10,888 nucleotides of DNA from a virus (lineage: Duplodnaviria > Heunggongvirae > Uroviricota > Caudoviricetes), in IMG/VR virus record IMGVR_UViG_2529293142_000034, positions 1-10,888 of that record; one strand, written 5' to 3'. Both the position numbers and the translations under genes were made by a program. Numbering within the stretch: the stretch's first letter is position 1; every line of letters starts with the position of its first letter. Of the stretch, positions 1-10,888 are shown one piece after another. Below the pieces are notes generated by a model. It saw only the letters and a list, made by a program, of their open reading frames with translations. It searched no databases and had not been told where the DNA came from.

Positions 1-1263
1 ATGAAGCTCACAGCCAGACAGGTCGAGACCGCAAAGCCAAAAGAAAAAACCTACAAAATGGCCGACGGCGGCGGTTTGTATCTCGAGATTTCGGCTAAGG
101 GCTCTAAATACTGGCGCATGAAATACAGACGCCCCTCAGACAAAAAAGAGGATCGCCTCGCTTTTGGTGTTTGGCCTACTGTGACGCTAGCTCAGGCAAG
201 AGTAAAGCGCGATGAGGCTAAAAAGCTGCTAGTGCAGGGCATTGACCCAAAAGCCGAACAGAAAGAAGTTCAGGCCGAGAATTCGGGGGCATATACATTC
301 GAAACCATTGCTCGTGAATGGCACGCCAGTAACAAGCGCTGGAGTGAAGACCATCGATCGCGCGTTCTTCGCTATCTTGAGCTTTATATATTCCCTCACA
401 TTGGTTCGTCCGACATTCGTCAGCTCAAGACTAGCCACCTATTAGCCCCGATTAAAAAAGTTGATGCAAGTGGTAAGCATGACGTCGCGCAGCGTCTTCA
501 GCAGCGTGTCACGGCTATCATGCGTTATGCAGTACAGAACGATTACATCGACTCAAATCCAGCCAGTGATATGGCTGGTGCTCTATCTACAACCAAGGTG
601 CGACATTACCCCGCTTTACCCTCTAGCCGATTCCCTGAGTTTCTTGCACGTCTTGCTGCATATCGTGGCCGTGTAATGACACGGATCGCGGTTGAGCTTT
701 CCTTACTAACTTTTGTGCGTTCCAGTGAGTTGCGTTTCGCGCGTTGGGATGAATTCGACTTCGATAAATCTCTATGGCGCATACCTGCAAAACGAAAAGA
801 AATTAAGGGTGTGCGTTATTCGTATCGTGGTATGAAGATGAAAGAGGAGCATATCGTTCCGCTGAGTCGTCAGGCGATGAATTTGTTAGACCAGTTAAAG
901 CAGATTAGTGGTGATAAAGAGCTGCTTTTCCCGGGGGATCATGACGCAACTAAGGTTATGAGTGAAAACACAGTGAATAGCGCATTGCGTGCGATGGGAT
1001 ATGACACAAAAACCGAAGTCTGCGGGCATGGGTTTAGGACGATGGCACGTGGTGCGCTGGGTGAGTCAGGGTTATGGAGTGATGATGCTATAGAACGCCA
1101 ACTGAGCCATTCAGAACGTAATAATGTTCGGGCTGCCTACATTCACACTTCAGAGCATTTAGATGAGCGTAGGCTGATGGTGCAGTGGTGGGCTGATTAT
1201 TTAGATATAAATAGAATGCAATATGTGACACCGTATGACTTCGCAAAGGAAGAAAATCTGTAG
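1..1263 (+). CDS. int: Tyrosine recombinase, P4-type integrase (420 aa)
   Basis: Intact 420-aa ORF starting at ATG position 1. N-terminal region (LYLEISAKGSKYWRMKYR...) is typical of P4-family integrases; C-terminal catalytic region has HGFRTMARG (His-x-x-Arg) and a downstream Tyr (VRAAYIHTSEH). Confidence 0.93.
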   Translation: MKLTARQVETAKPKEKTYKMADGGGLYLEISAKGSKYWRMKYRRPSDKKEDRLAFGVWPTVTLAQARVKRDEAKKLLVQGIDPKAEQKEVQAENSGAYTFETIAREWHASNKRWSEDHRSRVLRYLELYIFPHIGSSDIRQLKTSHLLAPIKKVDASGKHDVAQRLQQRVTAIMRYAVQNDYIDSNPASDMAGALSTTKVRHYPALPSSRFPEFLARLAAYRGRVMTRIAVELSLLTFVRSSELRFARWDEFDFDKSLWRIPAKRKEIKGVRYSYRGMKMKEEHIVPLSRQAMNLLDQLKQISGDKELLFPGDHDATKVMSENTVNSALRAMGYDTKTEVCGHGFRTMARGALGESGLWSDDAIERQLSHSERNNVRAAYIHTSEHLDERRLMVQWWADYLDINRMQYVTPYDFAKEENL

Positions 1264-1302
1264 AAATTATATGCTAACAATATATAAAACTCTTATAGTA
1301 AT

Positions 1303-1332
1303 AAACCATCCATTATTTTTAATGGATGGTTT
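1303..1332. terminator. Perfect 12-bp inverted repeat (AAACCATCCATT / AATGGATGGTTT) with a 6-nt loop, between the convergent int and cargo genes; putative bidirectional terminator
   Basis: Palindrome read directly at 1303-1314 and 1321-1332, between the int stop (1263) and the cargo gene stop (1362-1364). The stem is AT-rich and there is no clean U-tract, so terminator function is uncertain. Confidence 0.4.
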
Positions 1333-1361
1333 AAGATGAATTACTAGTTTTATGATTGAAT

Positions 1362-3657
1362 TTAAATTACTTCGACATTTTGATCATCATTAGCACTTTG
1401 CTGAACGTCGACATTAATGTCATCATCATTCGGCAGAGCCTTATAATATTCTCCCATCATCATTTTATAATGTGCAGCATTATCGCTGTATTCAAATATT
1501 TTCTGGAATATATTGAGATTTTTACTAACCGAGTTTTGGTCTAGAGCAATGTAAAGATCGTCATTTGAATGATGTGAACCGTCATTAATCCAAGATATCA
1601 ATGAATTAAATGCTATTTTTTCATCACCATCAAAATGTTTTTCGAGTTTCCATACATTAAATCCACCTAAAATTTTAAAGTAATTTTCAAGAATTCTTCT
1701 CATTGTGTTTTGTACTGTTGTGCAATTAATATCAGGGCGCCTTATCTCACTCCATAGTAAATCATATGAAGTTTTAATTGGATTGCATGCATGGCTTTCA
1801 ATGAACGATAATTTATCCTTTTTCCTAATGACCCAAAATGTTTCATCAGGACGAGCAGTATCTAAATTTCTATTCATATCGAAAGTTAACTCTTTATGAA
1901 AATAAATATTGTGAGTTAGGAAAAAGACCTGTTTTATACGGCCATTATTGTCTCTAATGTCTTTTATAAGTTTTTTCATTAATGAGCTAACTATAAACAG
2001 AATATCACTATCTAAACTTGATATAGGATCATCAAAGACAACTACTCGATCGTTCATTACACCAGATGTTGAATTACTTCCTTTGATGAGATTATAGAAA
2101 TATAGGAATGTGATAAAAGTTTTCTCACCCTCACTGAGTGTGCTTAGGGCATTATCACCATTTTCACGTACGATTCTATAGCTAAACGAATCGGATGTCG
2201 GTGCAAGGCTAAAATTTTTGAAGCCAAATGATAAAAGTATCTTATTTATAGCAGTGATTGTTGGCGTGACACTGGTTCTTTTAGATTCCTCGCTGGATAT
2301 ATTTTCAATGATATCATCTAATCTGACTTTGTCTTTTTCTAAACCCTTAATTAACCCTTCCTTAGCTCTATTTAACTGTTCCTTATCAGTATTATATTTA
2401 TTTATTTTATCAGCCAGTTCAACTTTAACTATATAATGCCATATTTCTTTTGTTAGTTTTTCTCTTTCCATGCTCCTGTTTTTGTATAGTTCATTATTTT
2501 CAAAAACTTGATTGTTAGCTGCAAGAATGATGTCTAATAATTCTTTGCCAGGCTCTAGAAGTCCTGTCATAGCGACAGGTGTACTTAATTCAGCCAATTT
2601 TCTTTTTGCTTCATCTATATTCCTTGATAATATTGATAGAATTAATTTGGATTTTGTGTTAAACAAATCCAAATCAAGGAAGGCATAGTTCCCTTCATTT
2701 ATTTTCGCAACATATTCATCAAATAAACGATACTCATGAGTATAATTTTTTAGTAATACATTAATGCTTTCTGTTTTTTCTAAATATTTTGTGTCAAAGT
2801 AACTTTCTAAATCCGATTTCAAACTACTGGGCGTATTTTGTTGGCAAAATGGACATTTGGTTTCAAGGTTATCATAGTACTTTATCCCTTCTTTAACCCA
2901 GTCACTGTTATCTAGTTGCCTTATGATTTCGGCAACGCTTGCATCTTCTTTTCCAAGAATTTTCTCTTTCCATATTTCATCGTCAACTATTTTTTTATGT
3001 TGCTAAAATTTGGTAAGGGAATTATATTGTGAACTGTTAGCGAGTCTGAGTAAACACTACCAGCCTTCGATATTAAGTATGGTAACTGGTGTAAATCTAC
3101 TTCTTTTGAATATAGCTCCTCTAATACCTTTGATTTGAATTTTTCCTGGCTGCTTCTTAAACCTTCAAATGCTTTATAGAAGTAATCATCATGTTTTTCT
3201 TTTGATTCCAGCAATCATTTTTGAAATCCAATTCAATTTTTTCAAGTTTTTGATAGATACCTAAATTTGCATTATCATTGTTATTTAAATTTCTTTTCTT
3301 GGAATCTATTGAGCTTTGCTCTTTATCCCTTTGTTGTATCAATTTGTCTATGTTATCTGTGAGCTCTTTTGTTTCTTCACCTAAAGTAAAAATACCTTTA
3401 ATACTATCTCCAGAAAAATTATTTACAACAAAATCCCTGTTGTAGACATAAGGAGTTAATTGATTGTTGTTTTTCCATTTAATCTGGCAAGTTGGAAAGC
3501 CTAAAGCATTATGAATTATTTTGCTAATTGTAGTTTTTCCAGCACCATTTGAGCCATATATGTAATTGATTTTCATTAGAGGCATCATATATTGAACGTC
3601 ATTTCCATATGAACCGGCTTGAGAAACGCTTATAGACTCTATCATTATCTTTTTCAT
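1362..3657 (-). CDS. Cargo gene: RloC/PrrC-like ABC-type ATPase with central CPFC motif and C-terminal putative nuclease domain (about 765 aa when joined); interrupted in this sequence by two homopolymer frameshifts
   Basis: Three adjacent minus-strand ORFs (3157-3657, 2987-3214, 1362-2822) join into one frame if one base is added at the T5 run 3194-3198 and at the T7 run 2990-2996. Walker A YGSNGAGKTT is at 3535-3558; reading the 1362-2822 frame upstream of its TTG start gives ...KYYDNLETKCPFCQQNTPSS (CPFC at 2844-2855). Signature-like LSEGEK, Walker B/D-loop VVVFDDPISSLD (about 2025-2045) and H-loop FFLTHN follow. Family assignment (AAA_13 / RloC-PrrC-like) is from motif recall, not a search. 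Confidence 0.7.
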
Positions 3658-3736
3658 CCTTTAGCTTTGTGTGAGGGGCGTGTCAGTCACGGATTACTAT
3701 TGCAGAATATCCATTTGTTTCAAGATATGTTTTTAT

Positions 3737-3780
3737 ACAGTGGTAAATAAACACAGTGGTAAATAAACACAGTGGTAATC
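3737..3780. repeat. Tandem direct repeat, 16-bp unit ACAGTGGTAAATAAAC x about 2.7, lying 80-125 bp upstream of the cargo gene start
   Basis: Exact copies at 3737-3752 and 3753-3768, partial third copy at 3769-3780 (ACAGTGGTAATC); a related CAAGTGGTTTAGTG follows near 3791. Confidence 0.8.
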
Positions 3781-3880
3781 ACAAAATATTCAAGTGGTTT
3801 AGTGTCATAGAAAGTGAGCATCTACGCAAGAATGTACTAACTCTGAGTTTACAAAATTAAATAATTAATATGCGCGCGCA

Positions 3881-3899
3881 GTGCTTTCCCCGCCTCGCC
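3881..3899 (-). other. cos site: P2/P4-type 19-nt cohesive-end sequence GGCGAGGCGGGGAAAGCAC
   Basis: Reverse complement of 3881-3899 is exactly GGCGAGGCGGGGAAAGCAC, followed on that strand by CTGCGCGCG..., matching my recollection of the P2/P4 genome left end. It sits between the cargo locus and psu, as expected for an integrated P4. Confidence 0.8.
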
Positions 3900-3999
3900 C
3901 GCCCGCTTTGCGGGGCGGTTTTAATGCAGTTGCACTGACACGCTCAGACCGCGCCGGGAATGGCGCGGTTTGCAGAAAATGAGGCAGGGAAACGCATGC

Positions 4000-4033
4000 A
4001 AAGCCATGCACCTTATCGATGCATGGCTTTTTT
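4000..4033. terminator. Intrinsic terminator-like hairpin (10-bp stem AAAGCCATGC / GCATGGCTTT, 11-nt loop) with a 3-prime T-tract on the plus strand and an A-tract on the other side; probably bidirectional, just downstream of psu
   Basis: Stem pairs 4000-4009 with 4021-4030, followed by TTT at 4031-4033 (T-run 4028-4033). Lies about 30 bp beyond the corrected psu stop (4064-4066). Confidence 0.5.
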
Positions 4034-4063
4034 CAGTAAAAACGGGCGGATTTTCGGGGAATT

Positions 4064-4635
4064 TTACACTGACTGACGTGATGCCAGTTGCGCACTTTTA
4101 CGCGAAAAAATCATGTTCTGCGCAGGGGTGAATTTTTCACGGCTGTCATCCACCGAAGCCGCGTCAGGCCTGAATCCGATGGTCGTTAAAATGTCGCTAT
4201 CCTGTGCGGAATAATTAATTTTTCCCCCTTCGCAAGCCAGGACAGAAGGGCTTCACGCAGGGCATCTGTGGCACGCTGTATGGCACAGTTTCGGGCAATG
4301 GCCGTCAGCTCACTGTATCCCATCAGCTCCGGTGCCAGTGCCGCCGCCAGTGCTGTGCCGTGCTGCTGCATAAAATCATTCAGCCGGTCGCGGATGCTGA
4401 TGTGCTGAACGGCTTCATGCGAACGAATATAACGACCGGCGGCCTGATTCACCTGCCATTTTCTGACTTCGATAATATTGCGTAATTCGTCCAGGCGACT
4501 GACGTTTCTGCCTTCCCCGGACAGAAGCCGCAGATATTCCTGTTCGGCCGCAGCCAGCTCATTTTTGCGTTGCAGCCATGCTGCTTTGTTATTCTGACAG
4601 GTGTCAAAGGCCTGCTGTAAGGCTGTGCTTTCCAT
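4064..4635 (-). CDS. psu: Psu polarity-suppression / capsid-decoration protein (190 aa after a one-base correction); C-terminus out of frame here because of a homopolymer indel
   Basis: ORF 4186-4635 (149 aa) ends ...LSWLAKGEKLIIPHRIATF*. The adjacent frame reads KINYSAQDSDILTTIGFRPDAASVDDSREKFTPAQNMIFSRKSAQLASRQSV* to a stop at 4064-4066. The join needs one extra T in the T5 run 4219-4223 and gives 139+51 = 190 aa, the length of P4 Psu as I recall it. Confidence 0.85.
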
Positions 4636-4707
4636 CGTTATCTCTTTCTCATCATGCTGAAGAATAAAATACGGTGTGCGGCGACGGCCGGTGTTAACCG
4701 GCAGCCC

Positions 4708-5208
4708 TCATTCCAGACGCAGCGAATATGATTGTGTTTTTAAGCGTACTGGCGGCAGTTCCTGTTTTTCATGCAGGCTTTCTGCCAGTTCGTCCGGCGT
4801 GACCGGGCGGACAATGAAACGGTTGATGGTCTGAAGCGTTTTAAACACCAGACCACAGCCCGGATCCGTGCACACATAAAAACGCTCGGTGACTTCCTGA
4901 GACAGACGCCTCGATGTTCTTGACAGTGCAAGGCCTTTACATCTCCGACAACAATATCCGGTAACAAGCATTCTTTTCGGGCGTTTCATACTGCCGGAGG
5001 CTGACGTCAGTGAATCGCGGTATCTCTGTTTGCCTGAAATGTATTCCATTCCTGAATCTTTACTGTCAGAGAAAAAGCTTTCACTCGCTTCAAATGTCGC
5101 AGAGCAATAAATATTCCGGCACTGTGCAATCATTATCTTGGTGCCATCGTCCATGAAATGTGCGCGGCGGGTGTGAGCAACATGTCCACACGACGGGCAG
5201 TAAATCAT
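4708..5208 (-). CDS. delta: Delta late-gene transcription activator with two tandem Ogr-type zinc-finger domains (166 aa)
   Basis: Intact 166-aa ORF with two C-x2-C-x22-C-x4-C modules (CPSCGHVAHTRRAHFMDDGTKIMIAQCRNIYC and CCRRCKGLALSRTSRRLSQEVTERFYVCTDPGC). Its ATG (5208-5206) overlaps the sid stop as ATGA. Confidence 0.9.
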   Translation of the reverse strand: MIYCPSCGHVAHTRRAHFMDDGTKIMIAQCRNIYCSATFEASESFFSDSKDSGMEYISGKQRYRDSLTSASGSMKRPKRMLVTGYCCRRCKGLALSRTSRRLSQEVTERFYVCTDPGCGLVFKTLQTINRFIVRPVTPDELAESLHEKQELPPVRLKTQSYSLRLE

Positions 5209-5938
5209 GACAGCAGTCCTCTGGCCTTAAGCTCTGCTCCCTGCTGGTCTATTTTGTCCTGCCACACCTTGCGCTGTGCCGGTGTGCCTGCCACCTCATA
5301 ATCCATGTGCGGGAGTGTTGCCGCTGACAGTCCGGTCAGCCGGAGAACCGGCTCACCGGTGAGGCTGATTTGCATCTGTTTTATTTTCTGTTCCAGCGAT
5401 GATTTCACCTGCTGCATGACAGCCTTTTCCGGTGCGACGTAGCCCTGATGGCCGGTGGCGTTGGCGAGCGGATTTTCCTGTACCAGAATGCTCAGATGCA
5501 TTGCCCGGACAAGCGCCTCACAGGTTTCATTCAGGGCGTGTTCCAGCTCATGCTCTGCATACAGACTCAGCAGGTGATGATGTGCCTTCCGGTAGGCGGT
5601 GGCCGTGCTGTCACACGCCCCTTTCAGGCGTTCACGTTCAAAATTCAGCACCACGGCCAGATTGTCATATTCCTGTACCAGCTCCCGGCGTGCCACGCGC
5701 TCAATGTGGCGCTGTTTCAGCTCGTCGCTCAGGACACCACCGGCTGCACGAAAGGCTGTGCGCCAGTCATCAGCGTCATTTCCGTCGGCCTGCGCCAGCG
5801 CATTTTTTCCTGCTCTGCCCGTTCAATGGCCTTGACGGTCTCATCCATCAGTCGGGCGTTCTCAAGGTGGGCGGCTCTGGCCTTTTCCAGTTGTGCCAGT
5901 GCGGGTTGCAGATATTCAGGGATGGTGTTGTCAGACAT
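5205..5938 (-). CDS. sid: Sid capsid size-determination (external scaffold) protein (244 aa after a one-base correction); split in this sequence by a homopolymer indel
   Basis: ORFs 5729-5956 and 5205-5696 join if one T is added to the T6 run 5803-5808: ...AIERAEQEK + NALAQADGNDADDWRTAFRAAGGVLSDELKQRHIER + VARRELV.... Starting from ATG 5938 (GAGGAG Shine-Dalgarno 7 nt upstream) gives 45+36+163 = 244 aa, the P4 Sid length as I recall it. Confidence 0.85.
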
Positions 5939-5972
5939 TTTCCGGCTCCTCGTCACTTCAGGTTAAGAAAAT

Positions 5973-6028
5973 TGTGACGTACACCGGACAACAACACGAC
6001 GCATTGCAGATGTGCCAGTCCTGACACA
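5973..6028 (-). promoter_or_regulatory. Candidate late promoter for sid-delta-psu with two TGT-N12-ACA activator sites of the Ogr/Delta type, centres 38 bp apart
   Basis: TGT-N12-ACA read at 5973-5990 and 6011-6028. If the distal site is centred near -55, the start of transcription falls about 5964 and the proximal site near -18, leaving a roughly 25-nt leader before sid ATG 5938. The -55/-18 arrangement is recalled for P4 late promoters. Confidence 0.55.
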
Positions 6029-6106
6029 GGAGACTCATCCTCAGACCGGCAAGCCAGGAAAAGGTCGCAGGAAAAACCGGCTTACTGTTTGTTTTTTTAT
6101 ATTTTA

Positions 6107-6220
6107 CTGTTCACCTCTGTTCACCATAAGAAAAAAGATAAGTAATACAGTAAGTTAAAGGGTGAACAATCGCAGTAATGACTGTTCACCGTCTGTTCAC
6201 CACTGTTCACCCGTTCATGG
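6107..6220. repeat. Phased 9-mer repeats CTGTTCACC (five direct copies, one inverted, one degenerate) in the divergent control region between sid and alpA
   Basis: Direct copies at 6107-6115, 6117-6125, 6182-6190, 6193-6201 and 6203-6211 (10-11 bp spacing within each cluster); inverted copy GGTGAACAA at 6161-6169; degenerate CGTTCATGG at 6212-6220. Existence is certain; function is inferred. Confidence 0.8.
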
Positions 6221-6295
6221 ACTTTTTGTGCTGTTTATTACTTTTTATTTTTATTAATTAACTGAAATAAATAAGAAAAACAATTTGTATTTCAC

Positions 6296-6301
6296 TATAA
6301 T
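6296..6301 (+). promoter_or_regulatory. Consensus -10 hexamer TATAAT facing alpA; candidate early promoter element
   Basis: TATAAT at 6296-6301 in an AT-rich stretch; no convincing -35 at 17 bp spacing, so this is weak. Confidence 0.25.
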
Positions 6302-6490
6302 TTTTTCCAGCTCCTTCCAGAGCGTTTTTAAAAGCTATCTGGCGCTGATGTGCAAAAAACACACAGCCATTGTAAGGCTGCCGGAACAAATCCCCCCTGT
6401 TGCGTCTGCCAAAAATATTCACAAAATAAAGCGCTACCCCGAAGCCGGACGGACTTATCCGGTGCTGTATGGACATTACGAGGTAGCCCG

Positions 6491-6760
6491 ATGCTAAGCC
6501 TGTTTTTTCTCCCCGTCTCCTGCCCCTGTGACGCCACTGATGCCGCTGCCGGACATCACGCAGGTAGCGTTTTTTTACGCTGCCGGAAGTGATGCACCTG
6601 TGCGGCCTGTCACGCTCGACCATCTATGAACTCATCCGTAAGGGGGAATTTCCGCCGCAGGTGAGTCTTGGCGGTAAAAAATGTGGCCTGGCTGCACTCT
6701 GAAATCACCGCATGGATGGCCGGGCGCATTGCCGGACGCAAACGGGGGTACGACGCATGA
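6491..6760 (+). CDS. alpA: AlpA-family (Vis/excisionase-like) helix-turn-helix regulator; reading frame broken twice at homopolymers in this sequence
   Basis: Core at 6580-6702 reads [34 protein letters not shown]...; removing one A from the A6 run 6676-6681 continues as ...[29 protein letters not shown] (stop 6758-6760), a close fit to the AlpA-family pattern. No in-frame start precedes the core unless one T is added to the T7 run 6570-6576, which joins it to ATG 6491 (GAGG 7 nt upstream). N-terminal boundary is uncertain. Confidence 0.65.
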
Positions 6761-7158
6761 TGATGCCCGCTCTGCAAAAAGTCCCTTTTTCTGGCTTGCC
6801 TTTTTCCGGCATTTGCGGATATAGTTTTTCTGCTGCCGCAAAATCGGCAGCCGGGCGTGGAAACCCGAGCAATTCACAGGCGGCATATGACGCGCCATGC
6901 GTCTTTTTTTGTGTCGCAATCAACGCCACAGAGCGCCAGATTATGGTGTGGTGTGTGGTCAGTCGTGCAGATGGCATTCCGTGCATCCTGCCCGCGTCCG
7001 CTCATTATGCCGCAGAGTCAATGGTAGCTCAGGCGGGGCAGCCTCCGGGCTGGCCGGTATCCTGTGAAGCCGGTATTTCCACCCCCGTCTGGGCTATCGC
7101 CATCGAGCGTGGAAACTCCGGCGATAGCGTTATTTGCTATTCACAGGAGGCTGCCATC

Positions 7159-7356
7159 ATGGCTACAACCCTCACCCCCTCACACCCTGAATTTGTCTTT
7201 GTGTTTGCGGCTGTCCGTCGCGCAGACCGTCATCCCCGTATCTGCATGCTTCGCACCGTCGCCGGTGATGAACGCAGTGCCCGCCGTTCCCTTGTCCGTG
7301 ACTATGTGCTCTCCCTTGCTGCCCGTCTGCCGGTGGTGGAGGTGTCCCGTGCGTAA
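7159..7356 (+). CDS. Small early protein (65 aa), possibly an Icd-like cell-division inhibitor
   Basis: ATG 7159 preceded by AGGAGG at 7145-7150 (8-nt spacer); sequence [65 protein letters not shown]. The stop overlaps the next gene start. The Icd-like label is from weak recall of prophage annotations. The same frame is open upstream to 6757, so the true start could lie further upstream. Confidence 0.4.
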
Positions 7357-7636
7357 TAAAAAAGCCCCTCAGACCGTCTCAGCGCGTCATGACGCCCGTG
7401 AACACCTCAGCATTGAGGCTTACCATAAGCTCAACCGCGCCAGCGCCGTATCCCAGTTTGTTGGGGGTGATTTGATTCACCGTGAACTCTCCGGCCTGCA
7501 TCAGCTCTACATTCCGCATATTTTCAGCTACCTGAATGAAGATATTGATTTTGTGCTGAATGAGCTGAAAGCCAAAGGCCTGTGCCGCGATTTTCTCGCC
7601 CAGCAGAAAGACCGGGGAGACAGGACGCATGTTTGA
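7349..7636 (+). CDS. Small early protein (95 aa), possibly the epsilon (derepression) homologue
   Basis: GTG 7349 with GGAGG at 7338-7342; no in-frame ATG exists downstream, so the GTG start is required. It overlaps the upstream stop (GTGCGTAA) and the downstream start (ATGTTTGA). The epsilon assignment is by position and size only. Confidence 0.5.
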
Positions 7637-8084
7637 TTTTCCCCAGCCCGGTGAGATTTACCGTTCTGCCGGTTTTCCCGATGTGGCCGTGGTCGGCATT
7701 CTGGAAGACGGTATTCCGTGGGAAATGCCGTACCGCTGCCCGGACATTGTCTGGAACCCGTACCGCCGTAAATTCAGTATCCTTGTGCGTATCCTCGCTG
7801 ACGGGCGCACCACAGACATCCCGCTGGGGCGTTTTCTGCGGGAATTTACCTGTGACCGTCCTGACCTGTTTAAACGCAGCCCCGTAAACCGGCATGCGGT
7901 ACTGAAAGAAATGGCCGGAGACCCGGAATTACAGAAATGGCGGGAGAAATATCTGGATATTTACCCGCAGGCCCCTGTTCCGGTCAGCCGGGCGGCACCG
8001 GTGGCGCGGGAATGGCGGGAAATTCCCCGCACGGAGCCTGACCCGGAAATCACCCCGGATAACAGTTACCGCAATTATCTGTAA
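7629..8084 (+). CDS. Conserved early-operon protein, 151 aa (orf151-like)
   Basis: Intact ORF whose ATG overlaps the stop of the preceding gene; its size and position before alpha match the P4 left-operon layout as I recall it. Function unknown. Confidence 0.65.
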   Translation: MFDFPQPGEIYRSAGFPDVAVVGILEDGIPWEMPYRCPDIVWNPYRRKFSILVRILADGRTTDIPLGRFLREFTCDRPDLFKRSPVNRHAVLKEMAGDPELQKWREKYLDIYPQAPVPVSRAAPVAREWREIPRTEPDPEITPDNSYRNYL

Positions 8085-8219
8085 TTAAAAAACGACCCCC
8101 GAAAAATTAAATGTGCGTATTCGCGCAGGGATACGCACGTCTTCAGGAGACGCAGATATGCCTTATCAGTTAATGCAACCGGCACGGAATGCAGTCATCT
8201 GTCACAGGGAGGAAAACAA

Positions 8220-8540
8220 ATGAAAACACCCTTACCGCCCGTCTTACGCGCTGCCCTTTACCGTCGCGCTGTCGCCTGTGCCTGGCTGACCGTGTGCGAA
8301 CGTCAGCACCGCTACCCGCATCTCACCCTTGAGTCACTGGAGGCGGCCATCGCCGCTGAGCTGGAAGGCTTTTATCTGCGCCAGCACGGTGAGGAAAAAG
8401 GGCGTCAGATAGCCTGTGCCCTGCTGGAAGATTTAATGGAATCCGGCCCCCTGAAGGCCGCGCCGTCGCTGTCCTTTCTCGGGCTGGTTGTGATGGATGA
8501 ACTCTGTGCCCGTCACATAAAAGCGCCGGTACTGCACTGA
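8220..8540 (+). CDS. Conserved early-operon protein, 106 aa (orf106-like)
   Basis: Intact ORF with GGGAGG upstream of ATG 8220; it ends 14 bp before the alpha start. Function unknown. Confidence 0.65.
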
Positions 8541-8554
8541 AGGAGAACAACACC

Positions 8555-10888
8555 ATGAAAATGAACGTAACCGCCACCGTCAGCCATGCACTCGGCCACT
8601 GGCCGCGTATCCTCCCGGCGCTGGGGATTCAGGTGCTGAAGAACCGTCATCAGCCCTGTCCGGTCTGTGGCGGGAGTGACCGCTTCCGTTTTGATGACAG
8701 GGAGGGGCGCGGCACCTGGTACTGCAATCAGTGTGGTGCCGGTGACGGCCTGAAACTGGTTGAAAAGGTGTTTGGTGTTTCCCCGTCCGATGCGGCCGCA
8801 AAGGTGGCTGCCGTGACCGGCAGCCTGCCCCCGGCTGACCCGGCAGTGACGGCTGCCGCCGGTGCTGAAACAGACGCTGCCCGGAAGAACGCCGCCGCAC
8901 TGGCACAAACCCTGATGGCGAAAACCCGTCCCGGAACCGGTAACGCCTACCTGACCCGCAAGGGCTTTCCCGGCCGGGAATGCCGGATGCTGACCGGCAC
9001 ACACAGAGCCGGTGGCGTGAGCTGGCGTGCCGGTGACCTTGTGGTGCCACTGTATGACGACAGCGGCGAACTGGTTAACCTTCAGTTAATCAGTGCTGAC
9101 GGCCGTAAGCGCACCCTGAAAGGCGGACAGGTCAGGGGCACCTGTCACACCCTTGAAGGACAGAATCAGGCCGGAAAACGTCTGTGGATAGCGGAGGGAT
9201 ACGCGACCGCACTTACCGTGCATCACCTGACCGGTGAAACGGTGATGGTGGCGCTTTCTTCCGTGAATCTCCTTTCTCTGGCCAGCCTTGCCCGGCAGAA
9301 GCATCCGGCCTGTCAGATTGTCCTTGCTGCTGACCGTGACCTCAGCGGTGACGGCCAGAAAAAAGCCGCCGCAGCCGCAGATGCGTGTGAAGGTGTTGTT
9401 GCCCTGCCGCCGGTCTTCGGTGACTGGAATGATGCCTTCACGCAGTACGGCGGGGAAGCCACCCGTAAGGCCATTTATGATGCCATCCGGCCACCGGCTG
9501 AAAGCCCGTTCGACACCATGAGCGAAGCGGAGTTTTCCGCCATGAGTACCAGCGAAAAGGCCATGCGTATCTATGAGCATTACGGCGAGGCGCTCGCGGT
9601 CGATGCCAACGGCCAGCTTCTGTCCCGCTATGAAAATGGTGTCTGGAAGGTGCTGCCGCCACAGGACTTTGCCCGGGATGTGGCCGGGCTGTTTCAGCGT
9701 CTGCGCGCGCCGTTCTCCTCCGGGAAGGTGGCCTCCGTGGTGGACACCCTGAAGCTGATTATTCCGCAGCAGGAAGCCCCCTCCCGCCGCCTGATTGGCT
9801 TTCGTAACGGCGTGCTCGACACGCAGAACGGCACGTTCCACCCGCACAGTCCGTCACACTGGATGCGCACCCTGTGTGATGTGGATTTCACCCCGCCAGT
9901 GGAAGGGGAAACGCTGGAAACCCACGCCCCCGCGTTCTGGCGCTGGCTTGACCGTGCCGCCGGTGGCCGTGCGGAAAAACGCGACGTGATTCTGGCCGCA
10001 CTGTTTATGGTGCTGGCAAACCGCTACGACTGGCAGCTCTTTCTGGAGGTGACCGGTCCCGGCGGCAGCGGCAAAAGTATCATGGCCGAAATAGCCACCC
10101 TGCTGGCCGGGGAGGATAACGCCACATCGGCCACCATTGAGACGCTGGAATCCCCGCGTGAACGTGCCGCGTTAACTGGCTTCTCACTGATACGCCTGCC
10201 GGACCAGGAAAAATGGAGCGGCGACGGTGCCGGACTCAAGGCCATCACCGGCGGCGATGCGGTGTCCGTTGACCCGAAATACCGGGATGCGTACTCCACG
10301 CACATCCCGGCGGTGATTCTGGCCGTGAACAATAACCCGATGCGCTTCACCGACCGCAGCGGCGGCGTGTCACGCCGGCGGGTGATTATTCACTTCCCTG
10401 AACAGATAGCCCCGCAGGAGCGCGACCCGCAGCTTAAGGACAAAATCACCCGCGAGCTGGCGGTCATCGTGCGTCACCTGATGCAGAAATTCAGCGACCC
10501 GATGCTCGCCCGGTCACTGCTTCAGTCCCAGCAAAACTCAGACGAGGCGCTGAACATCAAACGGGATGCCGACCCGACGTTTGATTTTATCGGCTATCTG
10601 GAAACCCTGCCGCAGACCAGCGGCATGTATATGGGGAACGCCAGTATCATCCCGCGCAATTACCGTAAATACCTCTATCACGCCTATCTGGCCTACATGG
10701 AGGCAAACGGCTACCGGAACGTACTCAGTCTGAAAATGTTCGGGCTGGGGCTGCCGGTGATGCTGAAGGAATACGGACTGAATTACGAGAAGCGCCATAC
10801 CAAACAGGGGATACAGACCAACCTGACGCTGAAAGAGGAAAGCTACGGCGACTGGCTGCCAAAATGTGACGACCCTGCAACAACCTGA
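8555..10888 (+). CDS. alpha: Alpha protein: P4-type primase/helicase (zinc finger + Toprim primase + D5-like NTPase), 777 aa, complete
   Basis: AGGAG 9 nt upstream of ATG 8555. N-terminal zinc-binding motif CPVCGGSDRFRFDD...CNQCG, Toprim-like acidic region (EGYATAL ... LAADRDLSGDG) and Walker A GPGGSGKS at 10055-10078. The 777-aa length equals that of P4 alpha as I recall it. Confidence 0.93.
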   Translation: MKMNVTATVSHALGHWPRILPALGIQVLKNRHQPCPVCGGSDRFRFDDREGRGTWYCNQCGAGDGLKLVEKVFGVSPSDAAAKVAAVTGSLPPADPAVTAAAGAETDAARKNAAALAQTLMAKTRPGTGNAYLTRKGFPGRECRMLTGTHRAGGVSWRAGDLVVPLYDDSGELVNLQLISADGRKRTLKGGQVRGTCHTLEGQNQAGKRLWIAEGYATALTVHHLTGETVMVALSSVNLLSLASLARQKHPACQIVLAADRDLSGDGQKKAAAAADACEGVVALPPVFGDWNDAFTQYGGEATRKAIYDAIRPPAESPFDTMSEAEFSAMSTSEKAMRIYEHYGEALAVDANGQLLSRYENGVWKVLPPQDFARDVAGLFQRLRAPFSSGKVASVVDTLKLIIPQQEAPSRRLIGFRNGVLDTQNGTFHPHSPSHWMRTLCDVDFTPPVEGETLETHAPAFWRWLDRAAGGRAEKRDVILAALFMVLANRYDWQLFLEVTGPGGSGKSIMAEIATLLAGEDNATSATIETLESPRERAALTGFSLIRLPDQEKWSGDGAGLKAITGGDAVSVDPKYRDAYSTHIPAVILAVNNNPMRFTDRSGGVSRRRVIIHFPEQIAPQERDPQLKDKITRELAVIVRHLMQKFSDPMLARSLLQSQQNSDEALNIKRDADPTFDFIGYLETLPQTSGMYMGNASIIPRNYRKYLYHAYLAYMEANGYRNVLSLKMFGLGLPVMLKEYGLNYEKRHTKQGIQTNLTLKEESYGDWLPKCDDPATT

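Follow-up and report, generated by a model that had tools for sequence, protein, structure and literature searches.

Phage P4 and the satellites related to it share the gene order int, cargo, psu, delta, sid, origin of replication (ori), alpA, icd/ash, epsilon, orf151, orf106 and alpha, and the interval between int and psu is known as a defence hotspot of these elements (PMC9122126, PMC8628076). Here, we analyse a stretch of 10,888 nucleotides, IMG/VR record IMGVR_UViG_2529293142_000034, which is called the window throughout. According to the open reading frame (ORF) calls, it extends from the ATG of int (position 1) through the stop codon of the P4 alpha primase (10888), and from about position 3900 to its end it matches phage P4 (X51522/NC_001609) with 97.8% identity over 6989 bp, from psu to alpha. 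All genes expected of a P4-like satellite are found in P4 order, namely integrase, psu, delta, sid, alpA, epsilon and alpha primase, and the same order from int to alpha is shared with P4 and its relatives; psu, sid and alpA, however, are complete only after single-base repairs. The window differs from P4 in two respects. Where P4 carries gop-beta-cII, the window has a PDC-S06/AAA_13 ATPase, and its integrase is of another type, about 89% identical to the IHE3034-type copy. The cargo (1362-3645) measures 2.3 kb, has a GC content of 31% and lies between int and psu, a position which holds different cargo in other P4-like elements.

An earlier note on this DNA had listed six frame disruptions, two in the cargo gene, one each in psu and sid and two in alpA, all at homopolymer runs, and had read them as probable sequencing error and not as pseudogenes. 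The reading favoured here, with moderate confidence, is a mixed one: the breaks in the conserved core are 454 draft errors, whereas those in the cargo gene are plausibly real, one of them at a natural slippage tract.

Source of the sequence

Contig AFDY02000006.1 is 100% identical to the window over positions 1-4217, and the two therefore very probably come from the same strain. Aligned to the whole window, this contig (AFDY02 in the following) shows 5 mismatches and 15 gap positions, every one of them beyond 4217. A second assembly, Logan contig SRR057628_352, is 100% identical to window positions 1-3903. The AFDY genome belongs to the Shiga toxin-producing Escherichia coli (STEC) O174:H21 strain 031 (H.I.8), sequenced on the 454 Titanium platform, with Celera 6.0 as the assembler (PMC3491183). 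Very probably, the window is a draft consensus, early and since superseded, of the satellite located beside tRNA-Leu and ahr in strain 031, and we infer that it represents the AFDY01 version of that assembly. The window occurs in none of the RefSeq complete E. coli genomes, whose closest matches reach 98.4% identity in the core and 99.8% in the int-cargo part.

Inventory of single-base indels

The six runs lie where the earlier note had placed them (T7 at 2990-2996, T5 at 3194-3198, T5 at 4219-4223, T6 at 5803-5808, T7 at 6570-6576 and A6 at 6676-6681), and comparison with homologues confirms a difference of one base from intact relatives at each of them. In their true state, the runs read T8 (2990), T6 (3194), T6 (4219) and T7 (5803), and in alpA T6 (6570) and A5 (6676). 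The repair thus takes four additions and two removals, instead of the five and one given before, both alpA sites being insertions. Since runs of at least five bases hold only 4.1% of the window, the location of six out of six sites in such runs is far beyond chance (probability about 5e-9).

As a list of the damage, these six sites are incomplete. Insertions and deletions (indels) were counted against five relatives and later against about thirty P4-like loci, which gave 17 single-base indels in all: 2 in the cargo gene, 1 in psu, 1 in sid, 7 in alpA and 6 in non-coding DNA. The non-coding ones, at 4666, 6276, 6329, 6330, 6437 and 6478, are private and had not been listed before. The statement that all breaks are at homopolymers holds for the six listed sites and fails for the whole set, about half of which lies in runs of at least five. 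Twelve of the 15 core indels are packed into positions 6276-6681, i.e., about 400 bp. Neither int nor the 4.2 kb from 6700 to 10888 showed an indel against relatives, apart from an additional G at 165 in one other clade.

Core indels as assembly errors

The disrupted features of the core are as follows.

4064-4635, minus strand: psu, one base short; the ORF ends at 149 aa.
4219-4223, minus strand: T5 followed by C5, true state T6; very likely an assembly error in the window (T6 in AFDY02; the T5C5 allele is also found in other assemblies).
4666-4669, no strand: A4 in place of the true A5; a private indel in the non-coding DNA between psu and delta (A5 in AFDY02 as well as 27 of 27 other loci).
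5205-5938, minus strand: sid, one base short; ORFs of 69 and 163 aa.
5803-5808, minus strand: T6, true state T7; very likely an assembly error in the window (AFDY02 and 29 of 30 loci have T7).
6276-6478, no strand: five non-coding private indels 5' of alpA, all absent from AFDY02.
6491-6760, plus strand: alpA (P4 ORF88/vis type, helix-turn-helix), with seven single-base indels, net +3 nt.

AFDY02 has none of the 15 indels that the window shows from 4218 to 6681; its Psu, Sid and AlpA measure 190, 244 and 88 aa. The comparison of the window with AFDY02 yields 15 indels and 5 substitutions; between AFDY02 and natural relatives, the ratio of substitutions to gaps is 82:7 (UTAK-5) and 101:1 (L020 of our locus set). 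Eleven of the 15 core indels have no counterpart in any of 16-31 other P4-like loci, and three of the five substitutions are likewise private to the window. Because 15 indels against 5 substitutions are an error signature, sequencing error holds as the explanation for psu, sid and alpA: it is very likely that the breaks in these three genes are errors and that the genes are intact in the strain. The 15 single-base indels and three private substitutions of the core are very probably consensus artefacts which are not present in the DNA, and positions 4218-6681, a part shared with other P4-like copies, very probably a stretch of poor-quality consensus. The error reading of the earlier note is borne out here, while eleven further errors had escaped it.

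In-silico repair restores Psu to 190 aa and Sid to 244 aa, as had been claimed. The 149-aa ORF of the unrepaired psu lacks helix alpha7, the rho-binding helix formed by residues 170-186 (PMC11718236), and would not reflect the real state of the strain. For alpA, the repair proposed before is incomplete. Both listed sites do differ by one base from relatives, but their repair leaves an ORF of 89 aa with the first 29 residues out of frame. The normal AlpA of 88 aa is regained only with all seven edits, which undo an added T at 6495, an added C at about 6500, a missing T at about 6510, an added T at 6565, T6 to T7 at 6570-6576, a missing T at about 6580 and A5 to A6 at 6676-6681. Three of the seven (6495, 6565 and about 6580) are at places without any repeated base. 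The five events upstream of alpA comprise A6 to A5 at 6276, T4A3 to T5A4 at 6325-6333 (two events), C3 to C4 at 6437 and AA to A at 6477/6478. Four of them were counted zero times among 16-31 other loci, and A5 at 6276 is shared with L009. A 34-mer across the indels at the 5' end of alpA had no match in the collections of species-representative genomes or viral contigs, which accordingly do not include the record of the window itself.

It is highly improbable that all breaks are genuine and the element is a prophage remnant in decay that has gathered many real frameshifts. Degraded P4-like elements such as WL164 do exist, and the fragments of 149 aa (Psu), 69 aa (Sid) and 486 aa (cargo) are each exactly encoded in other assemblies. 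Yet the very contig that is identical over 1-4217 lacks 15 of the 17 indels, eleven of which are unique among the compared loci. Decay would also have to produce indels and substitutions at 3:1, insertions outside homopolymers and 12 indels within about 400 bp, while sparing int and the 4.2 kb from icd to alpha and leaving no large deletion or insertion sequence (IS) element.

The psu T5C5 allele was found on 56 contigs and the sid T6 allele on 21, some with further frameshifts and others otherwise clean. Their occurrence elsewhere weighs against our reading of the core insofar as both could be real alleles. The two runs are generally slippage- or error-prone, and an allele shared with other assemblies does not decide the case of the window. 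Contigs encoding the 149-aa Psu and the 69- and 163-aa Sid fragments were considered as proof of real window alleles, and this was dropped, as AFDY02 is intact. Several of the other carriers of these fragments have extra frameshifts, and three are drafts of the DEC collection, presumably from the 454 era. A mismatch-repair-deficient lineage as the source of indels and transitions was rejected as well, given that the 3.9-kb int-cargo part is identical to AFDY02; the clustering of events within 400 bp and the several insertions outside runs also argue against it.

Two sister drafts (AIGS01/AIGR01, L008/L009) carry the same P4-like element with different genes broken: one has int split and a delta of 141 aa, the other an alpA of 72 aa, and both have the 149-aa psu allele. 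This pattern suggests draft-assembly noise there, too. An unrelated P4-like element, L042 (Logan SRR21973083), is 97.5% identical to the window core and has the sid T6 and psu T5C5 breaks together with a shortened Icd-like gene, which makes it either noisy data or another multiply hit element.

The core indels resemble known errors of 454 drafts in several respects. They are single-base over- and under-calls enriched in runs, they far outnumber substitutions, they vanish in a later assembly version, and the platform is documented for the genome of strain 031. They differ in that about half of the window events are in runs of at most three or at no run, and in that 12 of 15 fall within 400 bp, which points to a locally poor or repeat-derived consensus instead of pure miscalling. 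A poor or repeat-derived consensus over the core stretch is the likely mechanism, because Logan contig SRR057628_352 ends at 3903, precisely where the conserved P4 core starts, and because several P4-like copies are common in E. coli, with up to 6 P4-like places per genome.

A more specific form of this mechanism, and one that stays within the error class, is the collapse or mixing of paralogous P4-like copies at assembly. The break of the Logan contig of the same run at the core start and the number of P4-like places per genome are compatible with it, as is the fact that the window departs from AFDY02 nowhere outside the conserved core, and does so at 5459 and 10884 with alleles that occur in other elements. 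We consider it unlikely nevertheless. No known copy has the 11 private indels or the 3 private substitutions, so that mixing of real alleles cannot make them, and no second P4-like copy was recovered from the genome of strain 031, which counts against it as well. Two of the window alleles remain awkward for an explanation by read errors: the one at 5459, which differs from AFDY02, is common to 7 of 31 loci, and the one at 10884 is the majority allele where AFDY02 differs. The core of either the window or AFDY02 may therefore be a blend of paralogous P4-like copies, beyond read errors.

The cargo gene and its two breaks

The situation is different in the case of the cargo gene, for which the following features are relevant.

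1362-3645, minus strand: PDC-S06/AAA_13 ATPase cargo gene, split into ORFs of 162, 75 and 486 aa (761 aa when intact).
2990-2996, minus strand: T7 (A7 in the sense strand; in frame at A8, ATA AAA AAA ATA), a length-polymorphic tract.
3194-3198, minus strand: T5, the second cargo frameshift, private to the data of strain 031 (L017 and L023 alone share T5; 11 other loci have T6).

The intact allele, WP_001615855.1 (761 aa; BEN5202, WL164), matches Pfam AAA_13 (PF13166) over residues 11-719 with E=2.8e-159 and PADLOC PDC-S06 (PDLC04890) over residues 1-736 with E=6.4e-259, and is thus a full-length match to the family profile; a weak PrrC-like match was seen at the C-terminus. Adding one T at 2990 and one at 3194 turns the window sequence into a 761-aa protein that differs from WP_001615855.1 by 1 residue. 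We found no anti-phage experiment on the cargo protein, and PDC systems are candidates only.

Unlike the core indels, the two cargo sites do not disappear on comparison with other assemblies. Both lie in unique sequence, and every available assembly of the strain 031 data reproduces them: T7 at 2990 and T5 at 3194 are seen alike in the window, AFDY02 and the Logan SRR057628 assembly, and the 162-aa N-terminal fragment, which requires T5 at 3194, is found only in SRR057628_352 and AFDY02000006.1. Exact look-ups of a 166-aa N-terminal cargo fragment gave no match. The chromosomal flank of AFDY02 was compared with three other strains and showed no indel, with about 100 runs of at least five bases outside the cargo gene. 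The cargo ATPase is plausibly a real OFF allele or a pseudogene in strain 031; we lean slightly towards at least one of the two breaks being real there. In that case, the gene would have taken a second hit, a private one, with T5 at 3194.

The competing view, that all six breaks including both in the cargo gene are sequencing errors and every gene is intact, is possible though doubtful. It draws on the tendency of 454 pyrosequencing to miscall run lengths, the T8 run being the longest of the element, and on the T7 run of sid having been called as T6 in the same window. Three assemblies that agree on the cargo gene may share a single read set, and the ratio of intact T8 alleles to T7 and T9 in the population is about 10:1. 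It has to explain, on the other hand, why AFDY02 dropped 15 other indels and kept exactly the two in the cargo gene, and why, with a flank that is clean against three strains and some 100 runs of at least five bases outside the cargo gene, the sole two anomalies fall within the 25 runs of that gene (Fisher p of about 0.04). Moreover, T7 is a documented natural allele in clean assemblies.

Several points weigh against the mixed reading with respect to the cargo gene. The window, AFDY02 and the Logan contig presumably go back to one 454 read set, in which a systematic undercall of T8 and T6 could have occurred, and T8 is the run most prone to under-calling. The platform of SRR057628 and the production route of AFDY02 are only presumed, and a search for independent high-accuracy data on strain 031 found none. 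The warning of the earlier note, that naive ORF calling would wrongly score these genes as dead, is accordingly justified for psu, sid and alpA, while for the cargo gene it is unproven and about as likely wrong as right; the same division applies to its verdict of sequencing error in general, which holds for the three core genes and is unproven for the cargo gene.

One observation concerns the annotation of this gene. At L023 10656-12284, a cargo product of 542 aa is listed although the DNA does not differ from the window. No ORF of that stretch beginning at a standard start codon exceeds 486 aa, and the 542-aa call needs an ATA start at window position 2990.

A length-polymorphic tract in nature

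The run at 2990 varies among natural loci. T7 is found, besides the window, in seven loci (L013, L015, L019, L020 and L022, as well as L017 and L023, which are strain 031's own data), T8 in four (L002, L003, L004 and L021) and T9 in three (L014, L016 and L018). These loci stem from different samples and metagenomes, and the flanking ahr, yjgR and idn genes are all of normal length. In the sense strand, A7 leads to an immediate TAG and a fragment of 219 aa, and A9 to a TGA two codons on and a fragment of 221 aa. Counts of exact proteins gave the intact 761-aa form on 158 + 11 contigs, the 219-aa form on 9 + 4 and the 221-aa form on 4. From these sequences, we conclude that T7 is a real, recurrent OFF allele in nature.

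A comparison of int plus cargo in 14 sequences (3766 bp) shows how often the tract has changed. Outside the tract there are 13 variable columns, six of which are informative and show no incompatibility with one another. With four of these six, one of them only 12 bp away, the tract itself is incompatible, and it requires at least five changes on the tree given by the six compatible sites. Recurrent independent length changes, as expected of a contingency locus, are thus found, and the per-site change rate of the tract is about a thousand times that of the rest of int and cargo. The run at 2990 is a real hotspot of slipped-strand mispairing. With its A8 in the sense strand, it exceeds all other homopolymers of the element; it has turned into A7 or A9 repeatedly in nature, and each such change creates a stop within two codons.

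This result removes the basis of one argument of the earlier note, namely that chance decay would not hit only homopolymers. The argument is unsound because real frameshifts in nature concentrate at homopolymers as well, and the T7/T8/T9 polymorphism demonstrates this. Whether a frameshift is error or mutation cannot be told from its lying in a homopolymer. More discriminating are the ratio of indels to substitutions against the nearest relative, the presence of indels in non-coding DNA or outside runs, and independent assemblies. For practical purposes, scoring the satellite from the window sequence means that psu, sid and alpA are called dead though intact in the strain; a blanket repair of homopolymer frameshifts is also wrong, in that it resurrects a cargo gene that may truly be off. 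Errors of 454 data at homopolymers or low coverage and homopolymer-driven pseudogenisation are both ordinary processes, and the finding as stated at the outset is mostly artefact.

The tract is not the only route to inactivation. In RM10740 (L002 2310-5946), the cargo gene is split by an IS3-family element, and in L021 (SRR3987671), positions 1-27, it abuts a putative IS end (reverse complement CTGATGAATCCCCTAATGATTTTGGTA), which we take to be an IS10-type terminal repeat. The IS3 and IS10-end cases are independent knock-outs besides the tract changes. A candidate defence gene in the P4 hotspot that is repeatedly inactivated, by slippage to T7 and T9 and by IS3 and IS10, fits a costly gene, and the repeated inactivation of this ATPase is a modest biological lead.

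A functional role of the tract, either as a contingency (phase-variation) switch or with A7 expressed by -1 ribosomal or transcriptional slippage, is improbable. The length changes of the tract, at least five independent ones in backgrounds that are nearly identical and to -1 as well as +1 alleles, would suit such a role, and A7 offers the heptamer A AAA AAA in the zero frame with a stop directly after it, where a -1 shift restores the full ORF. Against this, the tract is absent from the 84%-identical homologue of Serratia aquatilis, which reads ATT GAA AAG ATT. A conserved tract, the other property of contingency loci, was thereby rejected. About 90% of the copies are ON, and the gene is also irreversibly destroyed by IS elements. 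Eight residues are, in addition, short for efficient switching in mismatch-repair-proficient E. coli.

The likeness to established systems remains partial in both cases. With slipped-strand contingency loci such as phase-variable restriction-modification genes, the tract shares length changes of one base in near-identical strains and the repeated switching of a reading frame; it differs in having only 8 nt, no conservation in homologues and mostly ON alleles. Recurrent pseudogenisation describes the cargo tract equally well, reversibility being hypothetical. As in -1 frameshifting of the dnaX type or transcriptional slippage, A7 has an in-frame A_AAA_AAA with a stop behind it, and the ORF would be restored by a -1 shift, but the intact A8 allele needs no recoding, and recoding of A7 is purely hypothetical; a stimulatory element of the Shine-Dalgarno type or a hairpin closely downstream was not seen, no search aimed at either having been made. 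As a speculation that we regard as rather improbable, the A8 tract could be a hypermutable ON/OFF switch by which hosts shed and regain a costly gene of the abortive-infection type, and A7 might leak full-length protein by -1 slippage on A_AAA_AAA-TAG.

Remaining genes and further observations

The remaining genes of the window are undisturbed.

1-1263, plus strand: tyrosine integrase of P4 type, intact, 420 aa (length as in WP_000778550.1; same place in WL164 and BEN5202).
4708-5208, minus strand: delta, intact, 166 aa (ORF call and P4 alignment).
6757-7356, plus strand: Icd-like/ash gene, intact.
7349-7636, plus strand: epsilon, intact.
7629-8084, plus strand: orf151, intact.
8220-8540, plus strand: orf106/DUF5375, intact.
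8555-10888, plus strand: alpha primase, intact.
6883, 7173 and 10720, within 6757-10888: three substitutions private to the window.

The Icd-like protein of the window, with its private exchange T43A, is unrecorded among about 15 billion proteins, and exact look-ups gave no match either for Icd-like variants of 214 and 199 aa, a 33-aa alpA fragment and a 75-aa sid variant. The alpha protein of the window, by comparison, is a variant present in 994 collection blocks.

In the four independent assemblies of L013, L014, L016 and L022, GG is extended to GGG within int, at about window position 165-167, and int is called with 366 aa. The satellite integrase is probably frameshifted in this clade, which includes both T7 and T9 cargo alleles. 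A second variation of gene content concerns delta: L013, L016, L034, L035 and L038 carry a single-domain Delta of 81 aa, compared with 166 aa in P4, with psu directly after it.

Finally, the non-coding DNA that separates the start of the cargo gene from the P4 core contains a 16-bp direct repeat, ACAGTGGTAAATAAAC, which is present twice in the window (3737-3768) and in AFDY02, and with one copy more in BEN5202 (L004 at about 11737-11784).

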